From a virus, in IMG/VR virus record IMGVR_UViG_3300049893_000773, positions 23,663 to 87,662 of that record: DNA of 64,000 nt; one strand, given 5' to 3'. Numbering within the stretch: the stretch's first letter is position 1; each line of letters begins with the position of its first letter. The position numbers and the translations under genes are program-made. The notes under the pieces are model-generated. The model did not search any database, was not told where the DNA came from, and saw only the letters and a list, made by a program, of their open reading frames with translations. This document shows positions 2,239-23,668 of the stretch, in pieces.

Positions 2239-2325
2239 ACGTGAGTTCTGGTTTTTGCCTAATTCGGTCAGCTAGTTACAAGCAACACCAAGGCGCGAGG
2301 GCAAACCTCGAAGGAATCTCCTGAA

Positions 2326-3204
2326 ATGTTGAAGTCCCCTACTTTGAAGCACAACAAGAAGCGAAATGTCGGCCTCCTGAACGAGTTCTTTGCTCGTTAC
2401 ATTGCCAAGGCCATCCTCGAAAAGCGTGATGGGGACATTGAGAAGGCGAAAGCCCTCTACGCTCGTCACTTTCAAAAGGGGACGGAGATAAGCCGGGAAC
2501 TTCGGTTGTTCACCAATCTCTTTGAGACTCGTGTGGAATCGAGGGAGGCAGCATTCTCCTTGCTCAACCAAGTGAAGGAAGCATGCAAGCTTCAATCCCA
2601 GGCACGTATTGACCTGGAGAAGACAGCCCTTCTCCATGAGATCAATCAGACCTTCGGGGAGTGCAACTTTTTCGATCAGGAGATTGCTGAGTACAGAGAG
2701 TATGCCACGGTTCAGGTGTTGCTCAACCACTGGCGTGGTCGTGTGGTGACTGAGAACCTGAGTGAAGCTGTCCAGTTGGAAGACAAGCTGGTTCTACGTC
2801 TCACCAGCAAGTCTCCTGTCGTTGAAAGCAAGTCCTTGGAAATGCAGGAATCCGAGGTTGATGGTTTGGTTGTCAACCTGATGATCCAGAAGTTCAACCA
2901 AAAGTTCGGGTCGATGTTGAACGAGGAGCAGAAGAAGCTCCTCCGACTGTACGTCTTCTCCAAGGACAATGCCAATGCCAAGGAAGAACTCGTTCGTCTC
3001 TTGGAGGGACTCAAGGAGAAGTCTTCCAAGATGATCGACACTGCTATGGCCAAGGACAAGGATGCTCAGAGGGTGAAGCCAAAGCTCCTGGAAGTCAAGC
3101 AGATGCTTCAAGAGACCTACCAAGACACATCTGCACCAGATGACTCCTTGGTAACCTTCTACATGTCCATCTCCAAGCTGAATGAGGAACTCTCCAATGA
3201 GTAA
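2326..3204 (+). CDS. Conserved head-module hypothetical protein (helical, Lys/Glu-rich)
   Basis: 292-aa ORF between portal and protease, preceded by TAGTTA (2273) and an AAGGA SD. Confidence 0.75.
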   Translation: MLKSPTLKHNKKRNVGLLNEFFARYIAKAILEKRDGDIEKAKALYARHFQKGTEISRELRLFTNLFETRVESREAAFSLLNQVKEACKLQSQARIDLEKTALLHEINQTFGECNFFDQEIAEYREYATVQVLLNHWRGRVVTENLSEAVQLEDKLVLRLTSKSPVVESKSLEMQESEVDGLVVNLMIQKFNQKFGSMLNEEQKKLLRLYVFSKDNANAKEELVRLLEGLKEKSSKMIDTAMAKDKDAQRVKPKLLEVKQMLQETYQDTSAPDDSLVTFYMSISKLNEELSNE

Positions 3205-3817
3205 GCTGCTTTTGCAAGAATTTGCCCAGTTCGACTACAAGAAACCAACCGACGAGGAAGGCAAGCCACGTCTTTCCAAGTACGGGAACATCCTTGTAAA
3301 GGGAGTCATTCAGCGTGCTGACGCCCTTAACCAGAATGGTAGGGTCTATCCAAGGCACATCCTTGAGAGGGAAGTTCGCAACTACATGACCCTGGTCAAG
3401 GAACGCAGGGCTACCGGAGAGCTCGACCACGCAGATTCTCCAACCGTCAACCTCCAGAACGCTTCCCACATTATCACGGATATTTGGTGGGAAGGCAATG
3501 ACCTCTGGGGTGAGATCGAGGTTCTTGAGGACCTTGATCAAGGAAGGAACCTCAAAGGACTCCTGAAGAACGATGTGAAGGTTGGAATCTCCTCCCGTGC
3601 TCTTGGAAGCGTGCAGAGGCTTGGGGAAACCAATGTGGTTCAAGAGGACCTTTACCTTGTGTGCTGGGACATTGTTTCCGAGCCGTCCACCCACGGTGCA
3701 TTCATGATGCAAGAAGCCAAGAGCTATTCCGACGAGGAAGTGCGTCGAATCATGAGCAAATCTGACCGTATTGACCGTGCCGCTAATGAAGTCCTGGCCC
3801 TGAAAGGAAGGCGCTGA
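3197..3817 (+). CDS. Prohead core protease (T4 gp21-like)
   Basis: NQNGRVYP, GELDH, SHII, VGISSRALGS and WDIVSEPSTHGA motifs; ATG at 3197 overlaps the upstream gene end. Confidence 0.93.
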   Translation: MSKLLLQEFAQFDYKKPTDEEGKPRLSKYGNILVKGVIQRADALNQNGRVYPRHILEREVRNYMTLVKERRATGELDHADSPTVNLQNASHIITDIWWEGNDLWGEIEVLEDLDQGRNLKGLLKNDVKVGISSRALGSVQRLGETNVVQEDLYLVCWDIVSEPSTHGAFMMQEAKSYSDEEVRRIMSKSDRIDRAANEVLALKGRR

Positions 3818-4236
3818 TGAAATTGACTCGTTCTGCGTTGAAATCAATCATTAAAGAATGTCTCCTTGAGTTGGCCGAAGAGGGTAAGTTGCAAATTGAG
3901 GGTATTAGCTCCCCAAATTTGAACGAAATCAAGAATCCGCAAGCAGGCAACTCCGACAATCTTGGAAATCCTCGCTTGCAGCAAGCAATTGACATGACGA
4001 CAAGGCTGCTCGCCAAGGGTGATCCCGGCAAAGCTGCCATGTACGAGTCCATCATTGCAGATACCGCTCGTACAACGCTTCAAAAGCAACTTGCGGCTAC
4101 ATCTTCTGGGGCTGGCACCTTGGTTGAGAGTGCCGTCTCCCCTGAAGAGCGTCAATATGACCAAGCACAACTTGGACAATTCGAGGCAAAGGACCGCTGG
4201 TCTATCCTGGCTTTTGCCAAGAAGCCGAAAAGCTAG
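3817..4236 (+). CDS. Putative internal head protein with N-terminal targeting-like tag
   Basis: Begins MKLTRSALKSIIKECLLELAEE; coupled to the protease gene by TGATG overlap. Confidence 0.65.
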   Translation: MKLTRSALKSIIKECLLELAEEGKLQIEGISSPNLNEIKNPQAGNSDNLGNPRLQQAIDMTTRLLAKGDPGKAAMYESIIADTARTTLQKQLAATSSGAGTLVESAVSPEERQYDQAQLGQFEAKDRWSILAFAKKPKS

Positions 4237-4270
4237 TAACGAGATAATTAGCTCCAAAGGGTAAGTCAAA

Positions 4271-4765
4271 ATGCCATCCCACCGTCAACTCATTACCGTC
4301 CCACAACCAAAAGCTGGTGGAGCCTCCACTGGACTCGGGACTTTTGCGCCAGGAAGTGCCGATTACGCTTCCCTCCGTTCGTCTTTCCCAGGCTCTCCAG
4401 CTTACGACGGCACCTATGCCGATGATGCGGTGGTGGCTAAGTACGAGGAAGTCAACACGTCTCCATTGAACGACGGTGGTCACACCTTTGGTTTGGTCAA
4501 GACCGACTTCTCGGATGCACCTGACCTTTCCACGGTCGCAACTGGTGGTGGTGGACTTCCTGGAACTCCATACGGTCCAAACCCATCGTCTCCTGGGCCA
4601 GGATTGAACCCAACGAACATCCCAGATCGTGATAGGGCATCCATCCGTACGGGTGGTGGCGGTTACGGTATCGGTGATGGTCTCGCTTCCCCATCGGCAA
4701 CGAGGGTAAACATCGCCCGCCAAAGAATCGGGAATCTGATTTTTGGCAAATCCACGCCTCGTTGA
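4271..4765 (+). CDS. Gly/Pro-rich putative virion protein
   Basis: 164-aa ORF within the head module, TAATTA at 4245 upstream. Confidence 0.6.
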   Translation: MPSHRQLITVPQPKAGGASTGLGTFAPGSADYASLRSSFPGSPAYDGTYADDAVVAKYEEVNTSPLNDGGHTFGLVKTDFSDAPDLSTVATGGGGLPGTPYGPNPSSPGPGLNPTNIPDRDRASIRTGGGGYGIGDGLASPSATRVNIARQRIGNLIFGKSTPR

Positions 4766-4789
4766 TTCTACCTACTCTGAGAGGTCCTA

Positions 4790-6868
4790 ATGTCGTCAAT
4801 TTTCGAAGAAGCGTTGCTTGAGGCAAAGAAACTGCGTCAAGTAGCTGAAGAGGATGCAAAAAACACCCTCATTCAAGAAATGACCCCTGTGATCCGCAAG
4901 ATGATCACGAACCAGCTTGCAGGCAAGTCCAGCGTTCTCTTCGAAGAGGAATTGCCTGCTGACCCAACAGCGTCCCCAGAAGCCCCTGTAGAGCCAGCAA
5001 TGGACCCTGCGGGCTCTGCCATGCCTGCGGCTGCACCTGTTCCTGTTGAGCCGCCTGCGAGCGGTGCTGCTGACGCACCTATTAAGGTGTCGGGCGCAGA
5101 AGTCATGAACATGCCAATGCCTGGACCAGATGGCAAGCTGGTAATTGACTTGGACGATCTTTTCGTTCCGGCAGAGCCAGGAGCGGAGACGCCTGATGAG
5201 GGTTCTGCTTCTGCCGAAGCTCCTCCAGCAATGCCCGGTGGGATGCCATCGCCAACTCCAGTGGATGTGAACCCAAGTGGTTCGGCACCAGAAGAAGCAC
5301 CAGCCCCAGAGGCTCCGGCTGCCCCTGTGGAGCCGGTTGCCACGGCAGGAGCCGAAGAGGTTCCGCCTCCCCCAGAGGAGCCAGCAATGGAGGAAACCTA
5401 CGAGCTTTTTGCCGAGGAGCTAAAGACCACGGCTGATCGCATTCACCAAGCCTATTCCTCCAAGGTTGGAGTTCCATCCCTTGTGAAGGAAGCTCTTCAG
5501 GAAAAACTCTATCAGCTTCTTGAATCCCTGGAATCGTTGAGCCGCAGAAACATGGTTTCTGAGCGTCTCACCCAAATCCAAGAGAGCCGTTTGGAGATTT
5601 TGCACCGCAAACTGAAAGAAGCAGTTGTCGCTAATACTTATCACAGAACAGAAGAAGGAACCGGAACTGACATGGCAAGCAAGTCGCTCAAGGAAATGGC
5701 TGCAAAGATGCTCGCAGAGAGCGCTTCGGTTGAGGGTGGTCCCGTCAAGTCTCCCGCTGATGTCCACAAGACAGAGGTGACGATGAAGGTTGACAACTCG
5801 CAGGAACAGGCTGCTGACAAGGCAGGAGCCCACGCTATGAAGGTTACGGAGCCTACTGTGACCCTCAAGACGGAATCGGCTGAAGCACAGGCTCAGGCTG
5901 CTCTTGCTGAGGAGCTTGCCGCTCTTGTTGCCGAGGGTTCTGGCGAGTCGCTTGCAGCCAAGGATGGGGAGCAGGATCTTGCTGGTGCTGCTTCGTCGAT
6001 TCCTGACAAGAAGGTTGGTCAAGTGGACCCAACGAAGAGCACGGCTGCAAGCAAGACCAATCCAGCTTCGCACGTTCAGGGTGTTGCAGAGTCGGTTGCT
6101 GTTTCGAGCAAGGCTCTTGCAGAGCAGACCAAGAAGATCAAGGCAGAAGCCTTGAAGAAGCAGATTGCCGCCCTTCAGGAGCAACTGAAGGAATGCGGGA
6201 TGCCAATGGAGGGCGATGCCCTTCCTGCGCCAGGAGCCCCAGCAATGGGTGTGATGGGCGAGGAAGATACGGTCATCAACTTCAACTTCGACCTCGCTGA
6301 TCTTCTGCCAGGACTTTCGGATCTTGGCGATGAAGACGAGATTGACATTGTGGGCGACGAGCCATCTGACGAGCCAAGCACCTTGGGCCCTGTGGGCGGT
6401 GCTGAACCAGAGGGTGACGACGCTGACGACCTTGAGCTTGCCGATGAGGACGAGCCAGAGGTTTCGCAACTTGCAGAGGGCAGGAAGTCCGGCAAGGGTG
6501 CGGGCAAGATTGTAGCGGAGAACAAGGATCTCCGTTCGCAACTTGCAACCGAGAAGCTGTTCAACGCAAAGATGGTTCATTTCCAGCCTTTCGTTAACAA
6601 TCCAAATCTGACCAAGCAACAGAAGCACAAAATTGCGGAGCACCTGGACAGAGGAACATCGCTTGAAGAAGTGAAGGCAATCTACAACCGCGTGAAGGTT
6701 GTGGTGGAGAACATGCAGAAGGTCTCTTCGAAGGCAGGAAGCTCTTCGAAGCCGGGTGTGACCCCTGCATCGACTCTCAGCGAGTCTGCCAACCCATACG
6801 AGGGATCGACCCTGGTGGAAGCAGAAAAGAATCGTTTGATGCAACTTGCTGGAATCAAGCGCAAGTGA
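4790..6868 (+). CDS. Prohead scaffold/core protein (gp22-like role)
   Basis: Acidic, Pro/Ala-rich, coiled-coil protein directly upstream of the MCP; many L/V-x-E sites; ends RLMQLAGIK. Confidence 0.75.
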   Translation: MSSIFEEALLEAKKLRQVAEEDAKNTLIQEMTPVIRKMITNQLAGKSSVLFEEELPADPTASPEAPVEPAMDPAGSAMPAAAPVPVEPPASGAADAPIKVSGAEVMNMPMPGPDGKLVIDLDDLFVPAEPGAETPDEGSASAEAPPAMPGGMPSPTPVDVNPSGSAPEEAPAPEAPAAPVEPVATAGAEEVPPPPEEPAMEETYELFAEELKTTADRIHQAYSSKVGVPSLVKEALQEKLYQLLESLESLSRRNMVSERLTQIQESRLEILHRKLKEAVVANTYHRTEEGTGTDMASKSLKEMAAKMLAESASVEGGPVKSPADVHKTEVTMKVDNSQEQAADKAGAHAMKVTEPTVTLKTESAEAQAQAALAEELAALVAEGSGESLAAKDGEQDLAGAASSIPDKKVGQVDPTKSTAASKTNPASHVQGVAESVAVSSKALAEQTKKIKAEALKKQIAALQEQLKECGMPMEGDALPAPGAPAMGVMGEEDTVINFNFDLADLLPGLSDLGDEDEIDIVGDEPSDEPSTLGPVGGAEPEGDDADDLELADEDEPEVSQLAEGRKSGKGAGKIVAENKDLRSQLATEKLFNAKMVHFQPFVNNPNLTKQQKHKIAEHLDRGTSLEEVKAIYNRVKVVVENMQKVSSKAGSSSKPGVTPASTLSESANPYEGSTLVEAEKNRLMQLAGIKRK

Positions 6869-6871
6869 CTC

Positions 6872-6877
6872 TACTTA
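6872..6877 (+). promoter_or_regulatory. TANTTA putative late promoter (MCP copy; representative of ~20 copies)
   Basis: TACTTA upstream of MCP; the same hexamer precedes portal, neck, both sheaths, tube, tape measure and baseplate genes. Confidence 0.65.
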
Positions 6878-6903
6878 GCAAAAAAGGAATATCGGAGTAA
6901 ACG

Positions 6904-8817
6904 ATGAAAACTTTCTCTCTTTCGCAATTGGCAGAAGGCGTAAACCGCCGCTCGCTTGGTGCTGATGCGCCAAGGCTTCTGTCCAAGTGGTCTGCAACCG
7001 GACTTCTTGAGGGACTTGGTGGTATGCAGAAGGAGACGCTCTCGCGCCTTCTGGAGAACCAAGTGGCCCAGCTCATTCAGGAGTCCAACGCCATCTCGAC
7101 GGGTGGTGCATCTCTGACCTCCTCGGGTCAGATTGCAGGCTTCTCGAACGTTGCCTTCCCTATCGTTCGTAGGGTCTTCGCTGGCCTCGTTGCCAACGAA
7201 GTGGTTTCGGTTCAGCCAATGAGCCTTCCTTCGGGACTGCTCTTCTACTTGGATTACACCTACGGCTCGAACGTTGGTGGTGATGCAGGTCTGAGCCTCT
7301 CGACCTCGGCAACGGCTGACACCTACAAGAGGGCAACCTCGGTGTACGGTCTTCCAACTGGAGCCTCGATCCGTTCGGGTGCAACTCCTGCTGGTGGCCA
7401 GTACGACCTCGTGGGTCACGGCTTCTCCAAGGTTCACAAGGGTGCTCTGAACATCACTGGCTCTACGGACTCGGTGGGTTACTGGCTCTCGGGCTCGACC
7501 TGGACAACGGGCACCTCGGCTGTCGTGGCAGCTTCGGCTGACTGGACCGGCTACAACGCCCGCTACGCTGGGTTCCGCCAGGACATCCAGAATGGTCTTG
7601 ACAACGGCGACTTCGACTACTGCTTCATGTTCATCTCGGCCTCCGAGTTGGCAGGCAAGATTTCGGGTCTCGATCTGAACGCTCTTGACCAAATCTCGAT
7701 CACTGGTTTCGGTTCGGCAGCAAACTCTGTGACCGCTTGGGGCGACAGCTTCCAGGGTGGTCTTGGAGTCCTGAACCTCCGCGCTCTGAACAAGCGTGGT
7801 GACTGGAACGCAGCCGCAGGTACCTTCACCCCAAACCCACTCGGCGGAAGCCACGTGTTGTTTGTGCTGAAGATCGCCAACGCAGGCACGGCTCCACAGC
7901 CAACCGGCGTGGCTTCGACCTACATCTCTGGCTCGGCAGCAATTGCAGACGCTCTTTCGGTTGGTTCGGAGGGCACGACCCTTACGGTCCCATCGTTCGA
8001 AACGGACTTCGCAGTTGACTCCTCGCCAAGGATTCCAGAGGTTGACATCAAGATCGAGGGTGTCTCGGTCACTGCAACGACCCGCAAGCTCCGTGCTCGT
8101 TGGTCGCCAGAGATGGCACAGGACCTTACGGCCTTCTACTCCATCGACGTGGAAGTGGAACTCACAAATATCCTGTCCGAGATGATCACGCTCGACATCG
8201 ACCGCGAAATCTTGAACGATCTCCTCACACAGGCCACAGCAGCAAACCTGTTCTGGTCGCGTGCTCCAGGACGCATCGTCAACAAGACCACTGGTCAGGA
8301 AGCTCTCCACAACAACGTCTTGGCCCCAGGCCCACAGTTCTTCGGAAATGTGCGTGAGTGGTACGAGACGCTCATGGAGACGATCACGGATGCAGCCAAC
8401 ACGATTCACAGGAAGACCCTCCGTGGTTCGGGTAACTTCATCGTCACGTCGCCAGACGTGGCAACGATCTTCGAGCACCTTGTGGCCTACAAGCCAGCAT
8501 ACAAGGTTGACTCCGATGGTCAGGTGAAGGAGTCGATGACGATTGGCGCAGAGGCAATCGGCACGCTCAACAACCGCTACGTGGTCTACAAGGACCCTTA
8601 CTTCCCACAGAACAAGATTCTGATTGGTTTGAAGGGCAACACCTTCCTGGAGTCGGGATACATCTACGCTCCATACGTTCCACTCATCTTGACTCCTGTG
8701 ATCTACGCACAGGAGGACTTCACTCCTCGCAAGGGTGTGATGACCCGCTACGGTAAGAAGATGGTCCGTGCTGACTTCTACGCCACTGTGACCGTGCTCG
8801 ACATGGCCCTCATCTGA
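6904..8817 (+). CDS. Major capsid protein (T4 gp23-like) with large insertion
   Basis: FPIVRRVFAGLVANEVVSVQPMSLPSGLLFY, TRKLRARWSPEMAQDL, EMITLDIDREIL, GYIYAPYVPL and FTPRKGVMTRYG motifs. Confidence 0.96.
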   Translation: MKTFSLSQLAEGVNRRSLGADAPRLLSKWSATGLLEGLGGMQKETLSRLLENQVAQLIQESNAISTGGASLTSSGQIAGFSNVAFPIVRRVFAGLVANEVVSVQPMSLPSGLLFYLDYTYGSNVGGDAGLSLSTSATADTYKRATSVYGLPTGASIRSGATPAGGQYDLVGHGFSKVHKGALNITGSTDSVGYWLSGSTWTTGTSAVVAASADWTGYNARYAGFRQDIQNGLDNGDFDYCFMFISASELAGKISGLDLNALDQISITGFGSAANSVTAWGDSFQGGLGVLNLRALNKRGDWNAAAGTFTPNPLGGSHVLFVLKIANAGTAPQPTGVASTYISGSAAIADALSVGSEGTTLTVPSFETDFAVDSSPRIPEVDIKIEGVSVTATTRKLRARWSPEMAQDLTAFYSIDVEVELTNILSEMITLDIDREILNDLLTQATAANLFWSRAPGRIVNKTTGQEALHNNVLAPGPQFFGNVREWYETLMETITDAANTIHRKTLRGSGNFIVTSPDVATIFEHLVAYKPAYKVDSDGQVKESMTIGAEAIGTLNNRYVVYKDPYFPQNKILIGLKGNTFLESGYIYAPYVPLILTPVIYAQEDFTPRKGVMTRYGKKMVRADFYATVTVLDMALI

Positions 8818-8888
8818 TCCTTCGGGATCTTAGCTCCCGGTAGAGGGAGCGTCAAGGCCCTCGGTGCTTTTCGCATCGGGGGCTTTGT
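8816..8888 (+). terminator. Hairpin cluster / intrinsic terminator after MCP
   Basis: GATCC-TTCG-GGATC, GCTCCC-ggtaga-GGGAGC, then AAGGCCCTCGGTGC-ttttc-GCATCGGGGGCTTT running into TTTGTT. Confidence 0.7.
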
Positions 8889-8929
8889 TCATTTGGGGAT
8901 TATGGATTTAACCTCTTCCAGAGGTAAAC

Positions 8930-9730
8930 ATGGAAAAGAGAGTTAAAGGCCCAGACGGAAGAGAATATTGCACCACTGCTTGTTGTGGAGGCCCACCAGC
9001 CAAGCAGCCCGACCCAGAGGGGACAACGCTCACCGTCCCCTCTGAATCGCTCGAAGATAAGCTTCCGCCTTTGTTGGATATTCAGCTCTTGAAAGCAAAG
9101 ATGTTGACCCCTGGCATCTTTGGGAGAAAAGATGCGTCCACAGTAGCGCCTATGCAGCGTTCGTTTTTCTGGTCAAGGAGACCGGGGAACTACGTGGATA
9201 GACTTACGGGACAGTCTGCCATGAAGAAGGTGGTCCAACGGGTAACCGTTTCCGAGATGGAAGTCCCAGGGTCTAATCCAAAGACCTTCGTCTTGGTCCA
9301 GCGAGAGGAGGAACGAGAGGTTCCAATCGACTCCTTTGAGGGAACAGTCAAGGATTGGTATGAGAAGCTGGGGGAGGAAGTCCTTCAGTGTGCCAACGAA
9401 ATTTTCCGCAAGTGCTTGGTGCCTGCCAATCTTGTTGAGATGTCCCCGGATCTCGTGAATCTATTCGAGGCCATTGGATTCGATCCCGGCAAATGGAGGC
9501 AGGTCGGTGCAAATGAGTTGCTTGCAACCAATAAGCTTTTTGGCAGGTATGCCGTTGTACGGTGTAACAACCTACCGGCAAACGAGTTGCACGTCAAGCT
9601 GATCTCGGAGATTTTCTACACTTTCGGCAATTTGACCGGCCCTGTCCCGGAAATCGACATGGAATTGCTCACCAAACCCGCGACGTTGGCTGATTACAAG
9701 GTCACTGTGTTGGACATGCCTCTCCTGTAG
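8930..9730 (+). CDS. Truncated MCP paralog 1 (A-domain-like part)
   Basis: EGTTLTVPS, FWSRRPG..V...TGQ, GTVKDWYE, ANEIFRK, SPD and VTVLDMPLL align with the C-terminal half of the MCP. Confidence 0.8.
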   Translation: MEKRVKGPDGREYCTTACCGGPPAKQPDPEGTTLTVPSESLEDKLPPLLDIQLLKAKMLTPGIFGRKDASTVAPMQRSFFWSRRPGNYVDRLTGQSAMKKVVQRVTVSEMEVPGSNPKTFVLVQREEEREVPIDSFEGTVKDWYEKLGEEVLQCANEIFRKCLVPANLVEMSPDLVNLFEAIGFDPGKWRQVGANELLATNKLFGRYAVVRCNNLPANELHVKLISEIFYTFGNLTGPVPEIDMELLTKPATLADYKVTVLDMPLL

Positions 9731-9762
9731 AGTCATTCTTTCCTCAACAGAGGAAAGAATCA

Positions 9763-10416
9763 ATGACAATGACAGAGACGGTGAATACCCCATACAGGAC
9801 AGCTTCCGCGCTGCCCAACAACCAACAAACGGAGACCAATAAGCGGTTTTGGTCCCGTACCCCCGGCAGGTTCGTCAACAAGTGGACCGGGCAGGATAGC
9901 ATGGCAAACGCTGGACTGAGCAACGGTCCAATGTACGTTGGAAATGTCCGTGAGTGGTACGAGACGTTTGTGGAAACGATTCACGATGCTGCTGCGGTTA
10001 TCAAGAAGCGTTCTGGCCAGGACCCCAACATCCTTGAGGTCTCCCCCGACATCTTGACCATTCTTGAGTGCACCGTGTCGTATAGATCAGTCTATTACGC
10101 AAATGAGGACCAGCCAAGGGTCACCATGAAGGGTGCAATTGGAGGGCTTGTTGGGCAAGTGGCTGGCAGGTACCATGTGCACGTCAACCCCGACTTCCCT
10201 GCGGATACAGCGAAGCTCGTGCTCGTGACCGACCAGAGAGTTTTGACGGAGACCGTGAAGGCACAGCCGCTTCAGGCCATGATTGATGGGAAGCCGGTGC
10301 CAAGCTACGTGGAAGATGAGTGGACCACAACTCAGGTTCGCAAGACTGAACCGCTTCCTTCCATCACCCGCCTTGATGGTATGACGATCAAGGTTCTCGA
10401 CATGAATATTCTGTGA
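9763..10416 (+). CDS. Truncated MCP paralog 2 (A-domain-like part)
   Basis: FWSRTPGRFVNKWTGQ, GNVREWYETFVETIHDAA, SPDI, GRYHVHVNPDFP and IKVLDMNIL align with the MCP. Confidence 0.85.
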   Translation: MTMTETVNTPYRTASALPNNQQTETNKRFWSRTPGRFVNKWTGQDSMANAGLSNGPMYVGNVREWYETFVETIHDAAAVIKKRSGQDPNILEVSPDILTILECTVSYRSVYYANEDQPRVTMKGAIGGLVGQVAGRYHVHVNPDFPADTAKLVLVTDQRVLTETVKAQPLQAMIDGKPVPSYVEDEWTTTQVRKTEPLPSITRLDGMTIKVLDMNIL

Positions 10417-10453
10417 AACGGAGTTAAGTCGTAAATCGCTCGTATTTACGGCT

Positions 10454-11521
10454 ATGGACCTTCGTTTCCGAGAAGAATGCTACGGCCACAGTGGTGGTCA
10501 AACCGATTGCTCTCTATACGCCCTTCTAGGCGACGAAGTGATCGGGAAGGTAGATATCGCCTACCACCGAAATGGTGGCCGTAGAGAGGCGTATATCAAG
10601 ATGATCGAAGTGCAGCCTAATTTCCAGGGGAAAGGGGTTGGCAAGGCTTTGATCTATAAGTTGGCCAGTCAAATCCCTTACGAGGCGATTGATTGGGGGA
10701 TGACCACGCCTGAAGGTGGGGCATTGAAGCAGGCAATGGACCGGGAGTTTGGAACATCCTACGTTCCACCTGAGCCCGAGCCAGACATGGATGACCCCAA
10801 GTACGCTGACGACCTCAGTGGCGAAAGGTATTTTGCCGACCTAAAGGTTTGGCGGCAAAAGCAAGGGTACGTGGATGAGGCTAATTACCACGGAAAGGGA
10901 ATGGAAAGAATGAAAGTCAAGGACCTCAAGAAGCTGGTTGCCGAGAGTGTAGCCGCTGCTGTGAAAGAAGCCGGATATGACCAGTACGGGGAGGGTGTGT
11001 CGCAACCTACGGAGCCAAGCTGGTTCGACACGCTGATGGCCCCTGATGAGCCTGCACCTGAACTCAAGGGCACGCCAGAAGCCAGGAAGCTGGTTGATGC
11101 GGCCAAATTGATGTTGAAGAAGGCTGGTCCAAAGATTGACAAGGAAGTCATGAGCCAAGTCTCTGCTGAGTTGGAGCACAACTTCAACCTCCCAGACGGG
11201 GTAAGCTGGGAAGTGGTCCATGCTGCCTTTGAGGAGCTCAAGAGTGACATGCTTTCCGAGGCTCCACCAGAGGGATGGCACGGGACTGTGCGGGCCATGA
11301 AGACCCATGGACACACTGGCAAGGGTGGGGAGATCGACAACCCATACGCCTTGGCACACTACATGGCAAACAAGGGGGATGAGCCTCACTACAAGGAGCA
11401 GCCAACCTCCAAGAAGGGTACTCCTGTGAAGAAGAAGGAGTACATGAAGACGGAAGCCTTCGTTGATTTGGTCCGTCAGATGATCCGCGAGGAGATCCTG
11501 AATCTCCGCAAGGGGAAGTGA
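10454..11521 (+). CDS. GNAT-like acetyltransferase domain fused to a tagged internal-protein module
   Basis: IEVQPNFQGKGVGKALI acetyl-CoA motif A; internal MKVKDLKKLVAESVAAAVKE tag at 10910. Confidence 0.7.
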   Translation: MDLRFREECYGHSGGQTDCSLYALLGDEVIGKVDIAYHRNGGRREAYIKMIEVQPNFQGKGVGKALIYKLASQIPYEAIDWGMTTPEGGALKQAMDREFGTSYVPPEPEPDMDDPKYADDLSGERYFADLKVWRQKQGYVDEANYHGKGMERMKVKDLKKLVAESVAAAVKEAGYDQYGEGVSQPTEPSWFDTLMAPDEPAPELKGTPEARKLVDAAKLMLKKAGPKIDKEVMSQVSAELEHNFNLPDGVSWEVVHAAFEELKSDMLSEAPPEGWHGTVRAMKTHGHTGKGGEIDNPYALAHYMANKGDEPHYKEQPTSKKGTPVKKKEYMKTEAFVDLVRQMIREEILNLRKGK

Positions 11522-11523
11522 CC

Positions 11524-11898
11524 ATGGCAAAGCAGATCATGAGCATTGAAGCGTTCGAGCAGTTGGTGCGGGAGTACATTCAGGAAGCTGTACGAGAGGA
11601 GATGCTCAAGGATCTTGCCAGGGTGCAGGAAGGTACTGCTGGAACACTCTCCACGACCTCTTCTACCTCGACCACTGGGACTTCTGGGACAACTGCGACG
11701 ACTGGTACCAAGTCGAGCATTGGTTCCAATCCTGGCAATGCCGACCCGGCAAACAACGTAATGGTCCCAGGGACAAACATGAACATCAATCAAGGTCTTC
11801 AGGCTGCTGCGAAGGAAACCAACTTCAAGAAGAAGGCCGAACTTGTAAACAAGATGTCCACCCAAATTCAGGGAATGAAGGGCCTCGTTATCAAATAA
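11524..11898 (+). CDS. Thr/Ser-rich putative internal head protein
   Basis: FEQLVREYIQEAVREE tag followed by a low-complexity T/S tract. Confidence 0.6.
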   Translation: MAKQIMSIEAFEQLVREYIQEAVREEMLKDLARVQEGTAGTLSTTSSTSTTGTSGTTATTGTKSSIGSNPGNADPANNVMVPGTNMNINQGLQAAAKETNFKKKAELVNKMSTQIQGMKGLVIK

Positions 11899-11935
11899 TG
11901 TGACGTTTGCCAGCCCTACTTAACGGGTAGATCCC

Positions 11936-13195
11936 ATGGCAACGTTCGCAACCACTCCAAGACCAACTCCGTTTGGGTTCTACGATTCAGATGCGGCATT
12001 CCAGCGGGATGCCGATTCCATGGTGACGTACGTCAAGCGTAAGGTGGGAGAAGACATTCTCTCCACTGAATTGACGAAGAAGGAAATCTGGAACTGCTTC
12101 GAAGAAGCCACTTCCAGGTTCAACGCTTGGGTGATTGAGTATCAGACCAAGAGTAACCTTGCAAGTCTTCTCGGAACTCCTACTGGGTCCTGGGACTCCA
12201 ATACCAACCAGAACACGATCAACCTGACGAACGTCTACGTTGCTCCGAACCTTGAGTTCCTTGATAGGTTGGCCGAGCCCTATGCCAATATCATTGGATT
12301 CGGTGCCACACAGAACTCCTTTTCTGGGTCCATTGACATGGTGGTTGGTAAGCAGGACTATGACCTCTACACCGACCTCAAGGATGAAGCTGGCAATACC
12401 CTTTACAGCATGCTCTCTGGCTCTGGCGGGAAGATGCGTGTTTTCGAGGTGTTCCACTTTGCTCCGATTCAGTACCTCTTCAACTCCTCCTTCGGCACGA
12501 ACTTTGGAAACGTGGCAGGTGTTGGAATTCCACTTGGAGCATTCAACACGGACACGAGGTTCCACATTCTCCCCCTGTACGAGGACGTGCTTCGTTCTGG
12601 ACAGTTGAAGCTGGCCAGCAAGGTAAGAAGGTCCCACTACACCTACAAGATTTCTGGGCGCAATATCCGCTTTTTCCCGGTCCCAAGCTCTGTGATTCCT
12701 GGGATCAACAACAAGGTTTGGATTCGCGTCGGATTCCAAGCTCAGGTGAACGGTGCCTTCATCGACCTTGGCACCAGCGGGTCTATTAGCGGCTCCCAGG
12801 GGCTTGCTGGAGCTTCCGGGTTCTCTGGCATGGCTGCTGGTGCATCCAACCCTGCCAACATCCCATTCGGGCTTGTGAACTACGCCACGCTCAACCACTG
12901 GGCGAAGAACTGGATTGCCAGGATGACCTTTGCTCTCTCTCTGGAGATCATGGGTCGTATTCGTCGTAAGGTGAACCGCATCCCAATCCCAAATGCCGAG
13001 GTGGAACTGGACGGTGGGGCTATCGTCACGGAAGCCAGGGAAGATCAGGCAAAGCTGATTGAGGAACTCAAGGCTCAGCTTGAATCCCTGTCATACGACA
13101 AGCTTCAGGAGATGGAAGCAACCAAGGCAGAGAACCTGATGAAGCAGCTCTCTTTCCTTCCAATGCCTCCAACGCATGCGATCAAGATGTTCTAG
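11936..13195 (+). CDS. Neck / head completion protein (gp13-like)
   Basis: Position after the capsid genes; YVKRKVG..ELT..EIW..FEEA, WIARMTFALSLEIMGRIRRK and LDGGAIVTEARE patterns. Confidence 0.7.
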   Translation: MATFATTPRPTPFGFYDSDAAFQRDADSMVTYVKRKVGEDILSTELTKKEIWNCFEEATSRFNAWVIEYQTKSNLASLLGTPTGSWDSNTNQNTINLTNVYVAPNLEFLDRLAEPYANIIGFGATQNSFSGSIDMVVGKQDYDLYTDLKDEAGNTLYSMLSGSGGKMRVFEVFHFAPIQYLFNSSFGTNFGNVAGVGIPLGAFNTDTRFHILPLYEDVLRSGQLKLASKVRRSHYTYKISGRNIRFFPVPSSVIPGINNKVWIRVGFQAQVNGAFIDLGTSGSISGSQGLAGASGFSGMAAGASNPANIPFGLVNYATLNHWAKNWIARMTFALSLEIMGRIRRKVNRIPIPNAEVELDGGAIVTEAREDQAKLIEELKAQLESLSYDKLQEMEATKAENLMKQLSFLPMPPTHAIKMF

Positions 13196-13268
13196 GGGCT
13201 GCAAAACATCCCCTCTGAACTGTTTGGAATCAAGGTGAAGCGAATGATCAGAAATTTCGGAGGCTTGA

Positions 13269-13931
13269 ATGGCACGGCTGTTTATCACACAACGAGAGAT
13301 CGACTATTTTAACGATATTGCCAAGGAAGTCATCAAGGACATCATTGGGCAGGCGATCATCTATTGGCCGGTGTCTACCCTGAAGACCAAGGTTCACCCC
13401 GTCTACAATGAGGCTGTGAAGAAAAACTTCGAGAACCCGATCAAGGTTGATGCCTTGGTTGGTCAGCCTCAATGGGAGACGAAGATGACGCAATTTGGAC
13501 CTGAGCAGCAAAACACCTTGGAGGTCTTCCTCCAGGCAAGGGATTTGGCTCAGAAGGGTCTAGAGATTGCGGAGGGTGACTTTTTCACCTATGGTGACAA
13601 CGCCTACGAAATCGTATCCAGCGTCAACATGAATAACTACTTTGGTCAGGTGGAGCACGATGTGGCTTTCAAGGTGATTGGAAAGCTGGCACGTCCTGGG
13701 GAGTTCAACCCGCAGAAGTTCTTCAAGCCTGACGCTGAGACGATCATTCCTACTCCAACCCCTTTCGAGCAACAGAGGGGTATTTCTGAAAACACGGAAG
13801 GGCCAACAGGAGATATTCGTGACGTTAAGGAACGTCTTGGCGACGACCTTCCAGCACCCGCACTTGGAGAAGGGCCAAGGCGAGTGGATGTTGATTCGAC
13901 CCTGAGAGCAAATAAGCTGTACGATGAATGA
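13269..13931 (+). CDS. Neck / head closure protein (gp14-like)
   Basis: IIYWPV, VYNEAVKKNF and EGDFFTYGDNAYEI; synteny. Confidence 0.6.
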   Translation: MARLFITQREIDYFNDIAKEVIKDIIGQAIIYWPVSTLKTKVHPVYNEAVKKNFENPIKVDALVGQPQWETKMTQFGPEQQNTLEVFLQARDLAQKGLEIAEGDFFTYGDNAYEIVSSVNMNNYFGQVEHDVAFKVIGKLARPGEFNPQKFFKPDAETIIPTPTPFEQQRGISENTEGPTGDIRDVKERLGDDLPAPALGEGPRRVDVDSTLRANKLYDE

Positions 13932-14622
13932 ACTAAAAGCCGCCTTTCAGTTTTGGCTCCTTGAGAGTAATGACCTTGAGGAAGCCAAGTTCAATCCCGA
14001 CGTTTTGGACAAAATGGACGGGCCTGAGTCCATGCTTTCAGCCGCTCGGGACAGACTTCCAGCACTTGGAGAGGGTTCATCTCGTGCTGCCTTTTTGCTG
14101 GACAGCAAGAGGGTGCTCAAGGTTGCCATCAACAACAAGGGGTTGGCCCAGAACAAGGCCGAGTATGAGCTTTCACAGCATCCTGGGGTGGCTCCTTTGG
14201 TGACAAGGATCTTCCGGGTTGGCAAGGACTACTCGTGGCTCGTTTCCGAACTTGTTCGTCCGCTCAGGACCAACAAGGAGTTTGAGCAGCTTACTCAAGT
14301 GCCTTGGAGCTTCTTCATCTCCTTCCTGAGTTTTTACGAGGGCAATGGAGACATTGGAAAATCCTTCAATCTCGCCGTGAAGTCTCAAATTGATCAGGAC
14401 AGGCGCAAGAAGAGCCCCTTCCCAGGCATCTCTGTGAGAGGGATCGAGCACCTTCCATTCATTGGGCGGTTCATGACCGCTCTTGGGAACCGCCCCGATT
14501 TGATTCCAGCAGACCTGATGAAGCTGGATCACTGGGGGAAGACACCGGATCAGCGTGTGGTCCTGTTGGATTCTGGCTATACCGAAGAAGTGTGGTCCTC
14601 GCACTATTCGGATGAGTCATAA
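13924..14622 (+). CDS. Protein-kinase-like fold protein, paralog A
   Basis: LGEGSSRAAF, VLKVA, QNKAE, DLMKLDHWG and VVLLDSG motifs. Confidence 0.65.
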   Translation: MNELKAAFQFWLLESNDLEEAKFNPDVLDKMDGPESMLSAARDRLPALGEGSSRAAFLLDSKRVLKVAINNKGLAQNKAEYELSQHPGVAPLVTRIFRVGKDYSWLVSELVRPLRTNKEFEQLTQVPWSFFISFLSFYEGNGDIGKSFNLAVKSQIDQDRRKKSPFPGISVRGIEHLPFIGRFMTALGNRPDLIPADLMKLDHWGKTPDQRVVLLDSGYTEEVWSSHYSDES

Positions 14623-14630
14623 TTACCAAT

Positions 14631-15842
14631 ATGGCCGGGAAAAACTCCACACGCTGGAATATCGAGCGAGATCCAAGGAATCCAGTAGATCACCTTCCCA
14701 CTGGATATGAGGGATCAAGCCCAACAGACTACACCATCCCGTCCTGTGACATTGAGGATGTGGATGTGGCTGTCCATACCCTTTTTGACCAAGAAATTGG
14801 ATTCAAGGCTCAGGGTATCAGCGACGGAGAGGAAACTGTTGATCAGCTTTCGAAGCCAATTGTGATCCTGGCCGCAGGTGAAAGGTTTGCTCTTGTCAAG
14901 AAGTTGCGTCCACCAAGAGACAAGCAAAAGCAACTCCTTCTCCCAGCAATTGCCATTCGCCGCAAGTCAATCACCCAAACAGCCGACGACTTGGTTTCCA
15001 GGGGAATGAACCAGTTCACCGGAGACTTGGTGATCAAGCGCAGGCTTGCTTCTGAGGACAGGGACTACCAGAACCTTATCAACAAACTTGCACTGCAAGA
15101 CTTGAACCCAAACGGAGTAACTTCCACCAGGGATCAGGGAGCAAACAGGGCTACTGTTGATGATGAGATTCGAGATGGAGCCTTCTTGGACCCAAAGCTG
15201 GGGGACAACGTGTGGGAGGTCATCACCATCCCACAACCACAGTTCTACACGGCCACCTACGAGGTGACATTCTGGTCTACCCATTCGGTTCACATGAACT
15301 ACATGGTGACAACCCTTTTGGCCGCTCAACTCCCCCAGGGTAAGAACTTTCGACTGAACACCCCAAAGGGATATTGGTTTCTGGCCGAGATATCCGACGA
15401 ATTGAGTTCAGCCGACAATTTTGAGGAGTACAGCGAGGACAAACGTGTGATCCGGTACACCTTCCAGTTGACGGTGAAAGCATTCCTTTTGGCCCCCAAC
15501 GGCCCTGGAATGCCTGTTCCCGTTCGAAGGCACATCTCTGCCGTGGAAATCTCCTTTGAGACAGTCCTGGCCACAGGAAGCGTCCAGGCTCCTAACGGAC
15601 CAAATCTCCCAAGTGAGCAGTACGCCTTGGCTGACATTGGAGAAAGAGTGGAAACGGCACAGACCCCCACCTCCGATCAAAGATTGGTGGTCGAGAAAAC
15701 GGTGGTCAACCCATTTACCGGAAAAACCTCTGTTAAGAGGGCTGTGATCATGGGGCAAAACCAAAAGCAGGGTGAAACAGTGTACAGCGCAACTGGCTTT
15801 GAGAGCTTGGACGAGTTCATTGAAGCATTGCGCGGCAAATGA
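14631..15842 (+). CDS. Tail terminator / sheath stabilizer (gp15-like)
   Basis: IEDVDVAV, GERFA, LLLPAIAIRR, PQFYTATYEVTFW and RYTFQLTVKAFL; immediately upstream of the sheath. Confidence 0.65.
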   Translation: MAGKNSTRWNIERDPRNPVDHLPTGYEGSSPTDYTIPSCDIEDVDVAVHTLFDQEIGFKAQGISDGEETVDQLSKPIVILAAGERFALVKKLRPPRDKQKQLLLPAIAIRRKSITQTADDLVSRGMNQFTGDLVIKRRLASEDRDYQNLINKLALQDLNPNGVTSTRDQGANRATVDDEIRDGAFLDPKLGDNVWEVITIPQPQFYTATYEVTFWSTHSVHMNYMVTTLLAAQLPQGKNFRLNTPKGYWFLAEISDELSSADNFEEYSEDKRVIRYTFQLTVKAFLLAPNGPGMPVPVRRHISAVEISFETVLATGSVQAPNGPNLPSEQYALADIGERVETAQTPTSDQRLVVEKTVVNPFTGKTSVKRAVIMGQNQKQGETVYSATGFESLDEFIEALRGK

Positions 15843-15943
15843 AGCCAGACTCCAAGTCGGAATCGTGGATATTGGACCCTAATTATCGAAGACAATCTGA
15901 ACTGATTGCTGCGTTCCGTGGCAGAAGTTAGACGAGGGACATA

Positions 15944-18900
15944 ATGAGCGACCAAATTTTCAAGAGCCCAGGGTTCTACGACCGTGAAATCGACCTCTCT
16001 GCCAGGACGGTTGAGCCTTCTGGTATTCCGGCTGCAATCGTTGGTACTTCGCAAAAGGGACCAGCTTTCGTGCCTGTCACGATTGGTTCTTTCGCTGACT
16101 TCCAGAGCAAGTTTGGCGACGTAGACCCAAAGTTTCCGGCTCCATATGCAGTGCAGAAGTGGCTTGACAACCGCAACTCGGCAACTTTCATTCGAGTTCT
16201 GGGTGGTGGAGCCAACTCCACCCAGACGGATCTTGACAACACCAGGACCAAGGGTATCGTCAAGAACGCTGGTTTCTCGATCAGTGGTTCGTCGGTGGGT
16301 GCTGGAGACCTTCGCTACAAGGGTTCGACGCAATTCATCGTTGCCAAGCACGTTGTGACGGGAACGGAAGTCTACGGCCTTCCAATGTTCTCGGACAACT
16401 CGTCCTTCTTCACGACTGGTTCATCTACGGACGTGTACTTGGTTCGTGGAATGATCTTCACTGCCTACGATACCCGTGTGATGGTGATGTCTGCCTCGGA
16501 TACCTTCTCTGGGGCTCTGGACGACTTTGCAACGCTCGACTCGGCCTCGACCAGCGTGACCTACAAGAAGTTCAAGCTTGTCCTCTCCTCGTCCTCTGGA
16601 TCGTCTTTCGGAAACACTGACGGGTACGCTGGCGTCAGGATCATGACGGCTTCGCTGAACCCATCGAGCCCTGACTACATCGCCAAGATCCTGAACACGG
16701 ACCCTGAGAAGTTCGAGACGGAGCGTCACGTCCTCTACTGCGACTTTGCAGTGGATGATGAGATCGCTACTGTTTCGTCGGCCTCGAACTGCGTCGGTGT
16801 GGTTTCTGGCTCCTCGAACACCTCGGCAAACTCCGGTGACACCTCCTTGACGCTCAGGGATGCCTTCGGACGTTTCGACACGAGGTTCACGACTCCAAAG
16901 ACGCCTTGGTTCATCTCGCAGCCATTCAGCGCCACGGAGCACAACCTCTTCTACTTCGAATCCCTGGACGATGGTGCCTACGCCAACAACAAGTTCAAGA
17001 TTTCGATCGCTGGTCTGAGAGCATCTTCCGATCCGAAGTACCTCTTCGGAACGTTCACGGTTGTTGTGCGCGACTTCAACGATTCGGACGTGGAGCCAAG
17101 GGTGTTGGAGCAGTTCAACAACGTTTCGCTCGACCCAACCGCAGACAACTACATTGCCAAGGTGATTGGTGATGTCAAGGTGGCCTACTCCTTCGACACC
17201 CTTGATCCAGACGACCGTCGTTTGAACAAGGAAGGTCAGAGCCCAAACCGTTCCAAGTTGATCCGCGTGGTTGTTTCCGATCAGGTGACAAGAGGCACGA
17301 TTCCAGCCAATGCTCTGCCATTCGGCTTCCGTGGATTCGAGTTCCTGAACACCTCCCACACCGGAAACGACGGCTTGCCAGTTGGTGGTATCTCTGGCTC
17401 CTTCATTCGCCTTGCTGCTTCTGGCACAACGGATCACCGTCTTCTCTCTGCAATGATTCCTCCACTCCCATACCGCTTCAAGGTTACGAGGGGTGAGGTT
17501 TCGTCCTCTGCTGGCTTTGAGGGACAACCTGGAGCCAACGAGGTTGTGGACTCCCGCTACTACTGGGGTGTCAAGACGGAGCGTAACGTCAACGTCCTGA
17601 ACCCAAACATCTCGAACGAGCCAAACGCCTTGGTTGCGGCTCTGACGAAGTTCCACGGTATCAGCAAGTTGGATGTCCTTGTGACGGGTTCGAAGACGGA
17701 CACGTACAACGACAACAAGTTCACCCTGGCCCGCGTATGCCTTTCCAACATCACTCTTGCCGACGTTACGGCTTCGGCAGAGACTCACATGAAGGAAGCA
17801 GCTTACATCCGTAACGGAACGGTTGATCCATCGGATTACTCCGTAACGGATACCAACGGTGCTCGTGTGACCTTCGCAACCCTCCTGATGAAGGGTTCCA
17901 CGGCTGCGGTGTTCAACCAGTTCTCGGATTATGCCAAATTCACGACAGTGATGGCAGGCGGATTCGACGGCGTGAACATCCTTGACAAGAATGCCGCTCG
18001 TTTGAACGACAAGGCCACCTCGACAGAGAGTGGCGGTGGAGCAAACAGCAGCTACACGTCCCCAGGATTCTCCACGAACCTCAACGGTTCTGGAAAGAAC
18101 AACGCCTCGATCTTCTCGTACCAAACGGCAGTGAAGATCATCACGGACCCATTGGTTTCGCAGCACAACCTCCTGGCAATCCCAGGAATTCGTGATCCAT
18201 TCGTCACTGACGATGCAGCCACGAAGACAGCGGAACACACCTTGTCCATGTACCTCATGGACATTCCTTACTACGACTACAACGGAACTCGCATCTTCGA
18301 TGGAGATACGAGCCGTTACACAGATTCCGACGAAACGAAGGATGTTTTCGATGCTCGTGCAATCGACAACGACGCAGCAACAACGTACTTCCCTAACTCG
18401 GTAATCGACGACCCAACAAATGGCCGCAAGGTCACCATCCCAGCTTCCGCAGTTGGTTTGGCTGCAATCGGTTACAACGACAGGGTGGCATACCCATGGT
18501 TTGCTCCTGCCGGGTTCAACCGTGCGGCTCTTGGCTTCGTCAACCTGACATCGACGAGGCTCAACCAGCCAGAGCGCGACAACCTGATTGCTGCTCGCAT
18601 CAACCCAATCGTGAAGTTCCCACGTGAGGGTTATGTGATTATGGGTCAAATGACGCTGAAGCAGGGTAAGAGCTCTTTGACCTCGATGAATGTCAAGAGA
18701 ATGGTGCTCGACGCCAAGCGTTCGATTGTTGAAATCGGAAACAGGTTGATGTTCGACAACATCACCCAATCGCTCCGCGACGAGGTTGTGAAGCAATATA
18801 CCGCCGTTCTTTCCAGCATTCAGTCTAAGGGCGGACTCGATGCGTTTGTTGTGATCTGTGACAACAGCAACAACACCCAAGTCGATATCGACTCCAACCA

Positions 18901-18994
18901 GATGAATGTTCAAATTCGTTTGCTTCCAACGCTTTCGGTGGAATTCATCGCAATTGACTTCATCATCACACAGAGCGGCGTTCAGTTCGTCTGA
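15944..18994 (+). CDS. Tail sheath protein 1 (gp18-like)
   Basis: FKSPGFYDREIDLS, KGPAFVPV, PWFAPAGFNR, INPIVKFP, NVKRMV and VEFIAIDFII motifs. Confidence 0.93.
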   Translation: MSDQIFKSPGFYDREIDLSARTVEPSGIPAAIVGTSQKGPAFVPVTIGSFADFQSKFGDVDPKFPAPYAVQKWLDNRNSATFIRVLGGGANSTQTDLDNTRTKGIVKNAGFSISGSSVGAGDLRYKGSTQFIVAKHVVTGTEVYGLPMFSDNSSFFTTGSSTDVYLVRGMIFTAYDTRVMVMSASDTFSGALDDFATLDSASTSVTYKKFKLVLSSSSGSSFGNTDGYAGVRIMTASLNPSSPDYIAKILNTDPEKFETERHVLYCDFAVDDEIATVSSASNCVGVVSGSSNTSANSGDTSLTLRDAFGRFDTRFTTPKTPWFISQPFSATEHNLFYFESLDDGAYANNKFKISIAGLRASSDPKYLFGTFTVVVRDFNDSDVEPRVLEQFNNVSLDPTADNYIAKVIGDVKVAYSFDTLDPDDRRLNKEGQSPNRSKLIRVVVSDQVTRGTIPANALPFGFRGFEFLNTSHTGNDGLPVGGISGSFIRLAASGTTDHRLLSAMIPPLPYRFKVTRGEVSSSAGFEGQPGANEVVDSRYYWGVKTERNVNVLNPNISNEPNALVAALTKFHGISKLDVLVTGSKTDTYNDNKFTLARVCLSNITLADVTASAETHMKEAAYIRNGTVDPSDYSVTDTNGARVTFATLLMKGSTAAVFNQFSDYAKFTTVMAGGFDGVNILDKNAARLNDKATSTESGGGANSSYTSPGFSTNLNGSGKNNASIFSYQTAVKIITDPLVSQHNLLAIPGIRDPFVTDDAATKTAEHTLSMYLMDIPYYDYNGTRIFDGDTSRYTDSDETKDVFDARAIDNDAATTYFPNSVIDDPTNGRKVTIPASAVGLAAIGYNDRVAYPWFAPAGFNRAALGFVNLTSTRLNQPERDNLIAARINPIVKFPREGYVIMGQMTLKQGKSSLTSMNVKRMVLDAKRSIVEIGNRLMFDNITQSLRDEVVKQYTAVLSSIQSKGGLDAFVVICDNSNNTQVDIDSNQMNVQIRLLPTLSVEFIAIDFIITQSGVQFV

Positions 18995-19062
18995 TAAAAC
19001 AGGGGAACCTGAACAGCCCGTACTGGCATACTTACCGAATAGCTGTCTAAGGGAAAAGCATC

Positions 19063-23179: not shown

Positions 23180-23668
23180 ATGGCTACAACACTTGGCGTA
23201 GAAGACCTCCTGGCGACGAAGTTTGAACCACTCGCCAAGCGTAGATTCATCCTGGCAATCGAAGGTATTGACGCCTTCCTTGTCAAGTCGGCATCTCGTC
23301 CAACCTTCACAACGGAAGAAGTCGCAATTCCATACGTCAACGTAACTCGTTACGTTGGTGGAAAGACGACCTTCAACACGATGACGGTCACGATGCACGA
23401 CGCTGTTGGTCCTTCGGGAGCCCAGCAGGTCATGGAATGGATTCGTGCAAAGTTCGAGTCCGTCACCGGACGTGAGGGTTACTCGGACTTCTACAAGCGT
23501 GACATCCAGTTGAAGCTCCTTGATCCAGTCGGAACGGTTGTTCAGCTCTGGGACATCAAGGGTGCATTCATCACGGAAGCAAACTTCAACGACCTGTCCT
23601 ACGAAGGATCGGATCTCACTGAGATTTCGCTCACCCTCCGCTACGACAACGCAGTTCTGCAATACTGA
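23180..23668 (+). CDS. Tail tube protein (gp19-like)
   Basis: FEPLAKRRFIL, AQQVMEW, YKRDIQLKLLDPVG, WDIKGAF and ISLTLRYD motifs. Confidence 0.92.
   Translation: MATTLGVEDLLATKFEPLAKRRFILAIEGIDAFLVKSASRPTFTTEEVAIPYVNVTRYVGGKTTFNTMTVTMHDAVGPSGAQQVMEWIRAKFESVTGREGYSDFYKRDIQLKLLDPVGTVVQLWDIKGAFITEANFNDLSYEGSDLTEISLTLRYDNAVLQY

Follow-up and report, generated by a model that had tools for sequence, protein, structure and literature searches.

A 64,000-nucleotide stretch of a virus record (IMG/VR record IMGVR_UViG_3300049893_000773, positions 23,663 to 87,662; hereafter, the window) carries, behind the gene for its gp23-type major capsid protein (MCP), two genes, P1 and P2, that are very probably working genes for free-standing axial (A) domains of that coat protein. 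HK97-fold coat proteins are the commonest viral building block; full-length vertex paralogs aside, we know of no phages in which a single coat-protein domain is maintained as a gene of its own. An earlier note, made by a model from the letters of the window, had pointed out the two reading frames and proposed what they might do; the observation is confirmed, and its interpretation is partly supported. The features on which the argument turns are as follows.

6904-8817, + strand: MCP of the gp23 family (PF07068, PHROG 138), 637 aa, parent of the P1 and P2 paralogs
8853-8887, + strand: stem-loop just behind the MCP stop codon, identified by folding, with 15 pairs (9 G-C), then TTCATTTGGG
8920-8925, + strand: Shine-Dalgarno-like AGAGGT, 4 nt ahead of the P1 ATG
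8930-9730, + strand: P1, 266 aa, stand-alone A-domain paralog of "P1 type" (BLASTP, alignments, AlphaFold2 model)
9017-9043, + strand: EGTTLTVPS peptide in P1 (aa 30-38), identical to MCP 356-364 (7969-7995)
9750-9755, + strand: Shine-Dalgarno-like GAGGAA, 7 nt ahead of the P2 ATG
9763-10416, + strand: P2, 217 aa, stand-alone A-domain paralog of "P2 type" (BLASTP, alignments, AlphaFold2 model)
9925-9992, + strand: 68-nt stretch with 76% identity to MCP 8329-8396, its core encoding GNVREWYET

Both frames lie where the earlier note had placed them, are intact, and are homologous to approximately residues 443-637 of the MCP. By BLASTP, the MCP matches P1 with an E value of 7e-15 (29% identity, covering MCP 448-637) and P2 with an E value of 2e-29 (36% identity, covering MCP 443-637), and P1 and P2 match each other with an E value of 1e-10. 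The sequence motifs that had been claimed for them (FWSRxPG..V..TG, GxVxxWYE, SPD, RYxV, and a terminal VLDM) are conserved columns in three alignments. The MCP itself is a clear member of its family (Pfam PF07068, Gp23, E = 3.9e-75, 254 bits; also PHROG 138), and its alignment with T4 gp23 220-478 shows that P1 and P2 both begin just past the spine helix. General family models hardly register the paralogs: P2 scores 15.6 bits against PF07068, for which the cut-off is 24.4, and P1 is unmatched at E ≤ 0.1; NCBIfam and PADLOC models gave no matches; and PHROGs gave none for P1 and only a chance-level match for P2. As a separate observation, P2 aa 64-101 (9952-10065), the main A-domain helix, has a sub-cut-off match to PF19130 (DUF5813; E = 2.6e-4, 21.3 versus 25 bits).

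Shorter identities with the MCP had also been claimed. The EGTTLTVPS peptide is indeed kept in P1, where its DNA is identical to that of the MCP at 20 of 27 bases and the differences are all synonymous; the aligned stretch of T4 gp23 lies immediately ahead of the E-loop-equivalent linker, and P1-type relatives retain L-x-V-P-(S/P)-(F/L)-(E/Q)-x-D-(L/F) at this site. The statement that P2 is nearly identical to the MCP in DNA holds for one 27-nt patch (26/27 bases) and fails elsewhere, identity falling to 76% in the 68 nt around it. Over the P2-MCP alignment as a whole, the same codon is used at only 27 of 66 identical residues, the patch is absent from the orthologous P2 of the related locus L016, and the chance of finding 8 of 9 identical codons at the patch is ~0.01 before correction for the choice of window. 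Because of this codon use and the L016 P2 that has no patch, we do not take it as a sign of recent copying; recent gene conversion, considered as the origin of the 27-nt identity, has no support outside the patch. The absence of the YAPYVPL...TRYG segment, also claimed, proved accurate for P1, in which the segment is deleted; in P2 it is instead exchanged for a diverged hairpin of near-equal length, which can still be aligned to the MCP at VP...ED(F/W)T and in which the YAPYVPL and TRYG motifs are missing. By eye, no T4-type L/I-x-E protease sites were seen in the P1 and P2 N termini; the MCP has several.

Predicted structures identify the retained part as the A domain. AlphaFold2 models computed from 29-row alignments, MCP C termini among the rows, have a predicted local distance difference test score (pLDDT) of 77.1 and a predicted template modeling score (pTM) of 0.66 for P1 and scores of 75.5 and 0.70 for P2. 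A structure search with the two models matched only HK97-fold capsid and encapsulin proteins; Foldseek alone was weak (template modeling scores of 0.2-0.4 and large root mean square deviation [rmsd]), and the ranges quoted here are those of VIA re-alignment. Residues 22-214 of the P2 model superpose on T4 gp23 312-521 with Z = 11.0 and an rmsd of 2.5 Å over 112 residues, and the same model superposes on T4 gp24 222-422 with Z = 9.4; for P1 on T4 gp23, Z = 10.6. The earlier note had named superposition on gp23 as a check of whether P1 and P2 are complete HK97 proteins, and they are not: the models cover only gp23 312-521 and gp24 222-422, which comprise the A domain and the C-terminal strands. 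Its contrast with T4 gp24, a near full-length paralog, likewise stands, since P1 and P2 have 266 and 217 aa against 637 in the MCP and correspond to the C-terminal third only.

The two proteins are built differently around this common core. P1 has an N-terminal extension (aa 1-75), an A domain from aa 79, and a beta-hairpin insertion (aa 98-132); the ~30-residue hairpin, modeled at pLDDT ~80-85, is missing from MCPs and is one of three family-specific additions, together with an N-terminal Cys motif (C-x3-CC-GGP) and a linker-like peptide. In P2, aa 1-23 are disordered, the A domain starts from aa 29, the insertion is absent, and a diverged hairpin occupies aa 149-212. Only ~22 residues separate the last A-domain strands in the C-terminal region of P1, leaving almost no P-domain hairpin; in P2, the ~44 residues at this place are predicted to fold into a long hairpin (strands 149-167 and 188-212; pLDDT 56-69 at the tip). 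The description of both as an A domain without a P domain, put forward in the earlier note, consequently fits P1 and fits P2 less well, as the long diverged hairpin replaces the P-domain strands there. We also noticed that P1 aa 13-25 (8966-9004) and the related proteins P0006, P0008, P0009, P0010, and P0025 share G-x-(E/D)-x-C-T-x-A-C-C-G-G-P; this three-cysteine region, modeled at low confidence, may be a metal or disulfide site.

Models and alignments agree that P1 and P2 are without the N-arm, insertion domain, linkers, and spine helix. Because these parts and a proper P domain are missing, the models show that the two proteins would be unable to make the inter-capsomer contacts that hold the shell together. 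What they keep would be the subunit interface of the capsomer core, formed by two helices (GxVxEWYET... and SPDxxTILE) and by one strand, G..RY/F. Positions N381, A387, and K420 of T4 gp23, the gp24-bypass sites, align with MCP D518, E524, and R558, which fall in the SPD, (I/F)xE, and NRY motifs, all kept in P1 and P2; passages of the T4 study (PMC9546572) place the three gp23 residues in the A domain, at the interface of neighboring subunits in the capsomer core. These three motifs and the GxVxEWYET helix are the best-conserved parts of P1, of P2, and of the wider family of stand-alone A-domain proteins described below.

P1 and P2 are kept by selection. The gene order MCP-P1-P2 is preserved in a sister lineage, in which L016 and L017 have all three genes; a third record, L018, begins inside P1, so that its MCP is off the record, and has the same P1-P2 order. 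Orthologs of P1 are L016:7177-7971 and P0005 (97% identity), and those of P2 are L016:8001-8666 (53-54% identity) and P0001 (91%). Between the window and L016, protein identity is 94% for the MCP, 41% for P1, 54% for P2, and 68-92% for neighboring genes. Within the close trio L016/L017/L018, whose three pairs are not independent, ratios of non-synonymous to synonymous substitution rates (dN/dS) are 0.26-0.30 for P1, 0.21-0.31 for P2, and 0.01-0.21 for the neighbors, and the non-synonymous share in P1 and P2 is 0.42-0.53 versus a neutral expectation of 0.76-0.78 (binomial p of 1e-3 to 7e-6). Neutral evolution, which the earlier note had named as an outcome that would count against a function, does not describe these genes; with dN/dS significantly below 1, P1 and P2 are under purifying selection. 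A related arrangement occurs in L022, a 189-kb record in which a single 247-aa copy, combining a P1-type insertion with a P2-like remainder, stands right behind an MCP of 85% identity.

The stem-loop between the MCP and P1 is conserved as well. It occupies 8853-8887 in the window, ~7100-7135 in L016, and ~5922-5957 in L022, in each case followed by (T)TCATTTGGGG, with folding z-scores of -4.4, -4.6, and -4.3, respectively; the stem sequence of L022 differs from the others while pairing is preserved. This element may be terminator- or attenuator-like, or it may be a 3′ stabilizer of the MCP transcript. Its conservation behind the MCP suggests attenuated read-through into P1 and P2.

P1 and P2 belong to a large family of stand-alone A-domain proteins. 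A profile search of 1.84 billion representatives returned 605 proteins at E ≤ 1e-3, and 77 of the 156 proteins examined are stand-alone by a simple rule (M start, (F/Y)WSR-type motif within 90 residues, fewer than 430 aa, P-domain motifs absent), with lengths of 125-266 aa (median, 179); the rule is crude, and certain short rows may be fragments. The remainder comprises 48 MCPs or MCP fragments and 31 unclassified proteins. Minimal forms (129-170 aa) begin a few residues ahead of the WSR motif and end in an MCP-type C terminus, and P1 and P2 fit the family description, with a start near (F/Y)WSRxPG, a VLDM-like end, and no P-domain motifs. Nearly all of the nearly invariant stand-alone columns are also nearly invariant in MCPs. 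In the ESM Atlas, 26 of the 30 nearest clusters are viral hypothetical proteins with no Pfam family, three of them listed at 153-171 aa. Other searches found little: a profile of the minimal forms hit zero chains among PDB sequences at E ≤ 10; tblastn against a phage collection found only the LR756508 MCP with P2 and nothing with P0111; and locus scans with single proteins (P0023, P0025, and P0111) came back empty.

In a tree of 112 rows and 178 columns (a quick LG+G4 search, read unrooted), 46 MCPs, cultured outliers included, and one stand-alone row (P0064) form one clade with support of 98, and the other 65 stand-alone rows fall outside it. Among the long forms, the P2 type and the P1 type each make up a clade of their own (support of 98 and 93, respectively). 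This topology implies that the family is either old relative to these MCPs or fast evolving. P1 and P2 themselves are an old duplication within the stand-alone family, descended from one older stand-alone ancestor rather than from two fresh truncations of the MCP gene beside them. P0064 (169 aa), which stands beside the window's MCP lineage in the tree, may be a younger independent truncation or a long-branch effect.

The wider set contains further variants. About a dozen of the unclassified proteins (232-244 aa; P0031, P0043, P0047, P0051, P0073, P0075, P0077, P0086, P0095, P0096, P0099, and P0110) share an architecture of ~235 aa in which an unrelated helical N-terminal domain of ~90 residues precedes the A-domain match. 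Seven minimal proteins (P0111, P0078, P0098, P0113, P0150, P0063, and P0085) have a CxxC pair in the loop that links the SPD helix to the G..RF strand, and P0085 has two such pairs and looks zinc-ribbon-like. BFVD matches of the P2 model include small viral proteins of 125-220 aa, among them a 125-aa uncharacterized protein of Erwinia phage vB_EamM_Y3 and a 130-aa uncultured marine phage protein (rmsd of 3.0 over 94 columns), and are leads to stand-alone A domains in other phage groups.

Among published proteins, those most like P1 and P2 in kind are the Family 4 "A-domain encapsulins" (PF08967/DUF1884; Andreas & Giessen 2021, PMC8346489). They are cellular, ~100 aa long, and made up of the HK97 A domain alone; their genes lie downstream of enzyme genes, in two-gene operons of hyperthermophilic archaea and two Bacteroidota genera, and the authors hypothesize that the proteins form pentameric facets and complexes with the adjacent enzymes. 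Like Family 4, P1 and P2 are free-standing A domains, and nearly the whole of the Family 4 structure 2PK8 (PF0899 of Pyrococcus furiosus, a 94-residue chain) superposes on their cores (P2, Z = 7.5, rmsd of 2.9, 85/94 residues; P1, Z = 7.3, 87 residues; both Z values are middling by the tool's note). Unlike Family 4, they are phage encoded, have 217-266 aa, derive from a gp23-type MCP, and lie not in an enzyme operon but in a phage head module, between the MCP gene and neck/tail genes; PF08967 matched neither P1 nor P2 at E ≤ 0.1, nor any of 10 other stand-alone proteins at E ≤ 0.01. With T4 gp23 (PDB 7VRT, 6UZC, 5VF3; PF07068), they share homology over 312-521, the same A-domain helices and strands, and the C-terminal strand, but they have no N-terminal propeptide, N-arm, insertion domain, linkers, or spine helix. 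T4 gp24 (PDB 1YUE) is, like them, a coat-protein paralog encoded beside the parent gene; it is, however, a near full-length HK97 protein that forms pentamers, and P1 and P2 span only its residues 222-422. They are a new phage-borne, gp23-derived version of "A-domain only" proteins; a literature search, supplements not covered, turned up no account of stand-alone A-domain paralogs encoded by phages.

The pair is set in a T4-type head and tail module at 127-19000 of the window, of which the genes upstream of the MCP include the following.

127-2238: portal
3182-3817: prohead protease
4790-6868: acidic scaffold-like protein

Downstream of P2 come genes for a GNAT-domain protein, a head-tail adaptor-like protein, and a sheath protein. 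The first of these (10454-11521) has an N-terminal GNAT acetyltransferase domain (PF00583, E = 1.9e-7, aa 17-71) that is absent from the orthologs in L016-L018, which have 214 aa and begin at the equivalent of ~aa 140. The source record, of 87.7 kb, is judged ~25% complete, which implies a phage of several hundred kilobases. By MCP, the closest cultured phages are Flavobacterium phage immuto (46% identity), Microcystis phage Mel-JY01, and Rhodothermus phage RM378, and the closest uncultured record is LR756508 (484 kb); megablast of 6904-10416 against GenBank phages gave no match.

From this position and from the retained surfaces, we tentatively propose, as a reading with a fair amount in its favor but one we would not yet call probable, that the products of the late-operon pair act sub-stoichiometrically, either on the head or during its assembly. 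P1 and P2 would be made late from the head operon at a level below that of the coat protein, a level we propose because a strong hairpin precedes them. They might then bind coat-protein A domains, or one another, side by side as in a capsomer, and so act as head-assembly accessories rather than shell builders, for instance as caps or modulators of capsomers or as occupants of special sites. Prediction of a complex of MCP 365-637 with P2 (both as alignments; controls not run) scored 0.00 in both runs, a result that speaks neither for nor against such binding.

Several results weigh against this proposal. The structure models were built from alignments with MCP rows. P1 and P2 change fastest in the module, which is unexpected for a core assembly factor. 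Among related MCP loci for which 2 kb or more of downstream sequence is available, a stand-alone gene lies near the MCP in 0 of 8 and 1 of 52, and a search of the entire records of immuto, Mel-JY01, and LR756508 found the MCP and no stand-alone gene (0/3); the stand-alone genes are dispensable on an evolutionary scale. These contexts come from related-locus and genome searches; most library proteins, P0003, P0004, P0005, and the minimal forms among them, fall outside these searches. Finally, a 144-aa member occurs in L020 and L021 amid recombinase-like, dUTPase-like, and nuclease-like genes (labels read from the translations, without searches) and, in the 127-kb record G001, ~50 kb away from the MCP; for this member, a position so far from head genes fits an early, non-structural role better.

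Two further reading frames were seen in these loci. L111 7623-8009 is a stand-alone A-domain ORF of ~116 aa located 2 kb downstream of a 633-aa MCP, the sole case in 80 MCP loci. L021 8405-8806, behind the 144-aa-type gene, appears by eye to be a more diverged second A-domain copy (...VETLVDTIV..., ...SPKLCELL...) and is undetected by the stand-alone profile at E ≤ 1e-3.

The alternative that survives best, though we consider it unlikely, is that P1 and P2 are decoys that mimic the A-domain surface of the coat protein and soak up a host capsid sensor or chaperone, so that infection is not aborted. Fast sequence change while the fold and the MCP-like surface helices stay, a patchy and accessory distribution, and the family members found amid early replication and nucleotide genes would all suit a decoy, and bacterial immunity does sense coat proteins: sensing by CapRel SJ46 is documented (in parts of PMC13728456). 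The pair in the window, however, belongs to the late head operon, which implies that it is made together with the MCP and not earlier; overall positive selection is not seen in the dN/dS values; PADLOC matched no defense or anti-defense model; and our literature search found no published capsid-domain decoy. A broader form of the idea, in which stand-alone A domains, as soluble versions of the best-conserved coat-protein surface, are a widespread phage counter-measure that absorbs sensors of unassembled coat protein or sabotages rivals' assembly, with the tandem pair as a late duplicated version, seems equally doubtful.

Improbable, too, is the reading in which the A domains assemble by themselves into rings or facets, of the sort suggested for Family 4, that hold or stabilize another protein (e.g., the product of a neighboring gene) and not coat protein. 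The superposition of whole 2PK8 on the model cores and the Family 4 authors' hypothesis of pentameric facets in complex with enzymes (PMC8346489, as far as the relevant parts go) lend this some appeal, as does the GNAT-domain gene that follows P2, but that domain is missing from the orthologous gene of L016-L018, PF08967 is unmatched, and partner genes vary between contexts.

We give still less credit to interference, in which P1 and P2 would enter and poison the capsomers of co-infecting relatives, whose A domains they would resemble more than their own. Over aa 22-146, P2 is 39-46% identical to the MCPs of other lineages; the figure for its own MCP, taken over the longer stretch 443-637, is 36%. 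An ETFVETI version of the helix is common to P2 and those other MCPs. The stand-alone family is old, however, so that a consensus-like helix may just be ancestral, and a poison would endanger the phage's own assembly too.

That the genes are decaying, functionless remnants of partial capsid-gene duplications, as truncated copies adjoining the parent gene and a 27-nt patch nearly identical in DNA might suggest, is hardly credible given frames that stay intact between lineages with 46-59% protein divergence, dN/dS significantly below 1, conserved start sites, and a large family of complete small proteins.

As small proteins with a known cognate coat protein, P1 and P2 lend themselves to straightforward binding and assembly tests. 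Besides the archaeal Family 4 encapsulins, they are a second case of "A-domain only" proteins, of independent origin. Diverse and conserved free-standing A domains, here as a selected tandem pair beside the parent gene, would point to an unrecognized layer, centered on the coat protein, at which head assembly is controlled or phage and host come into conflict.

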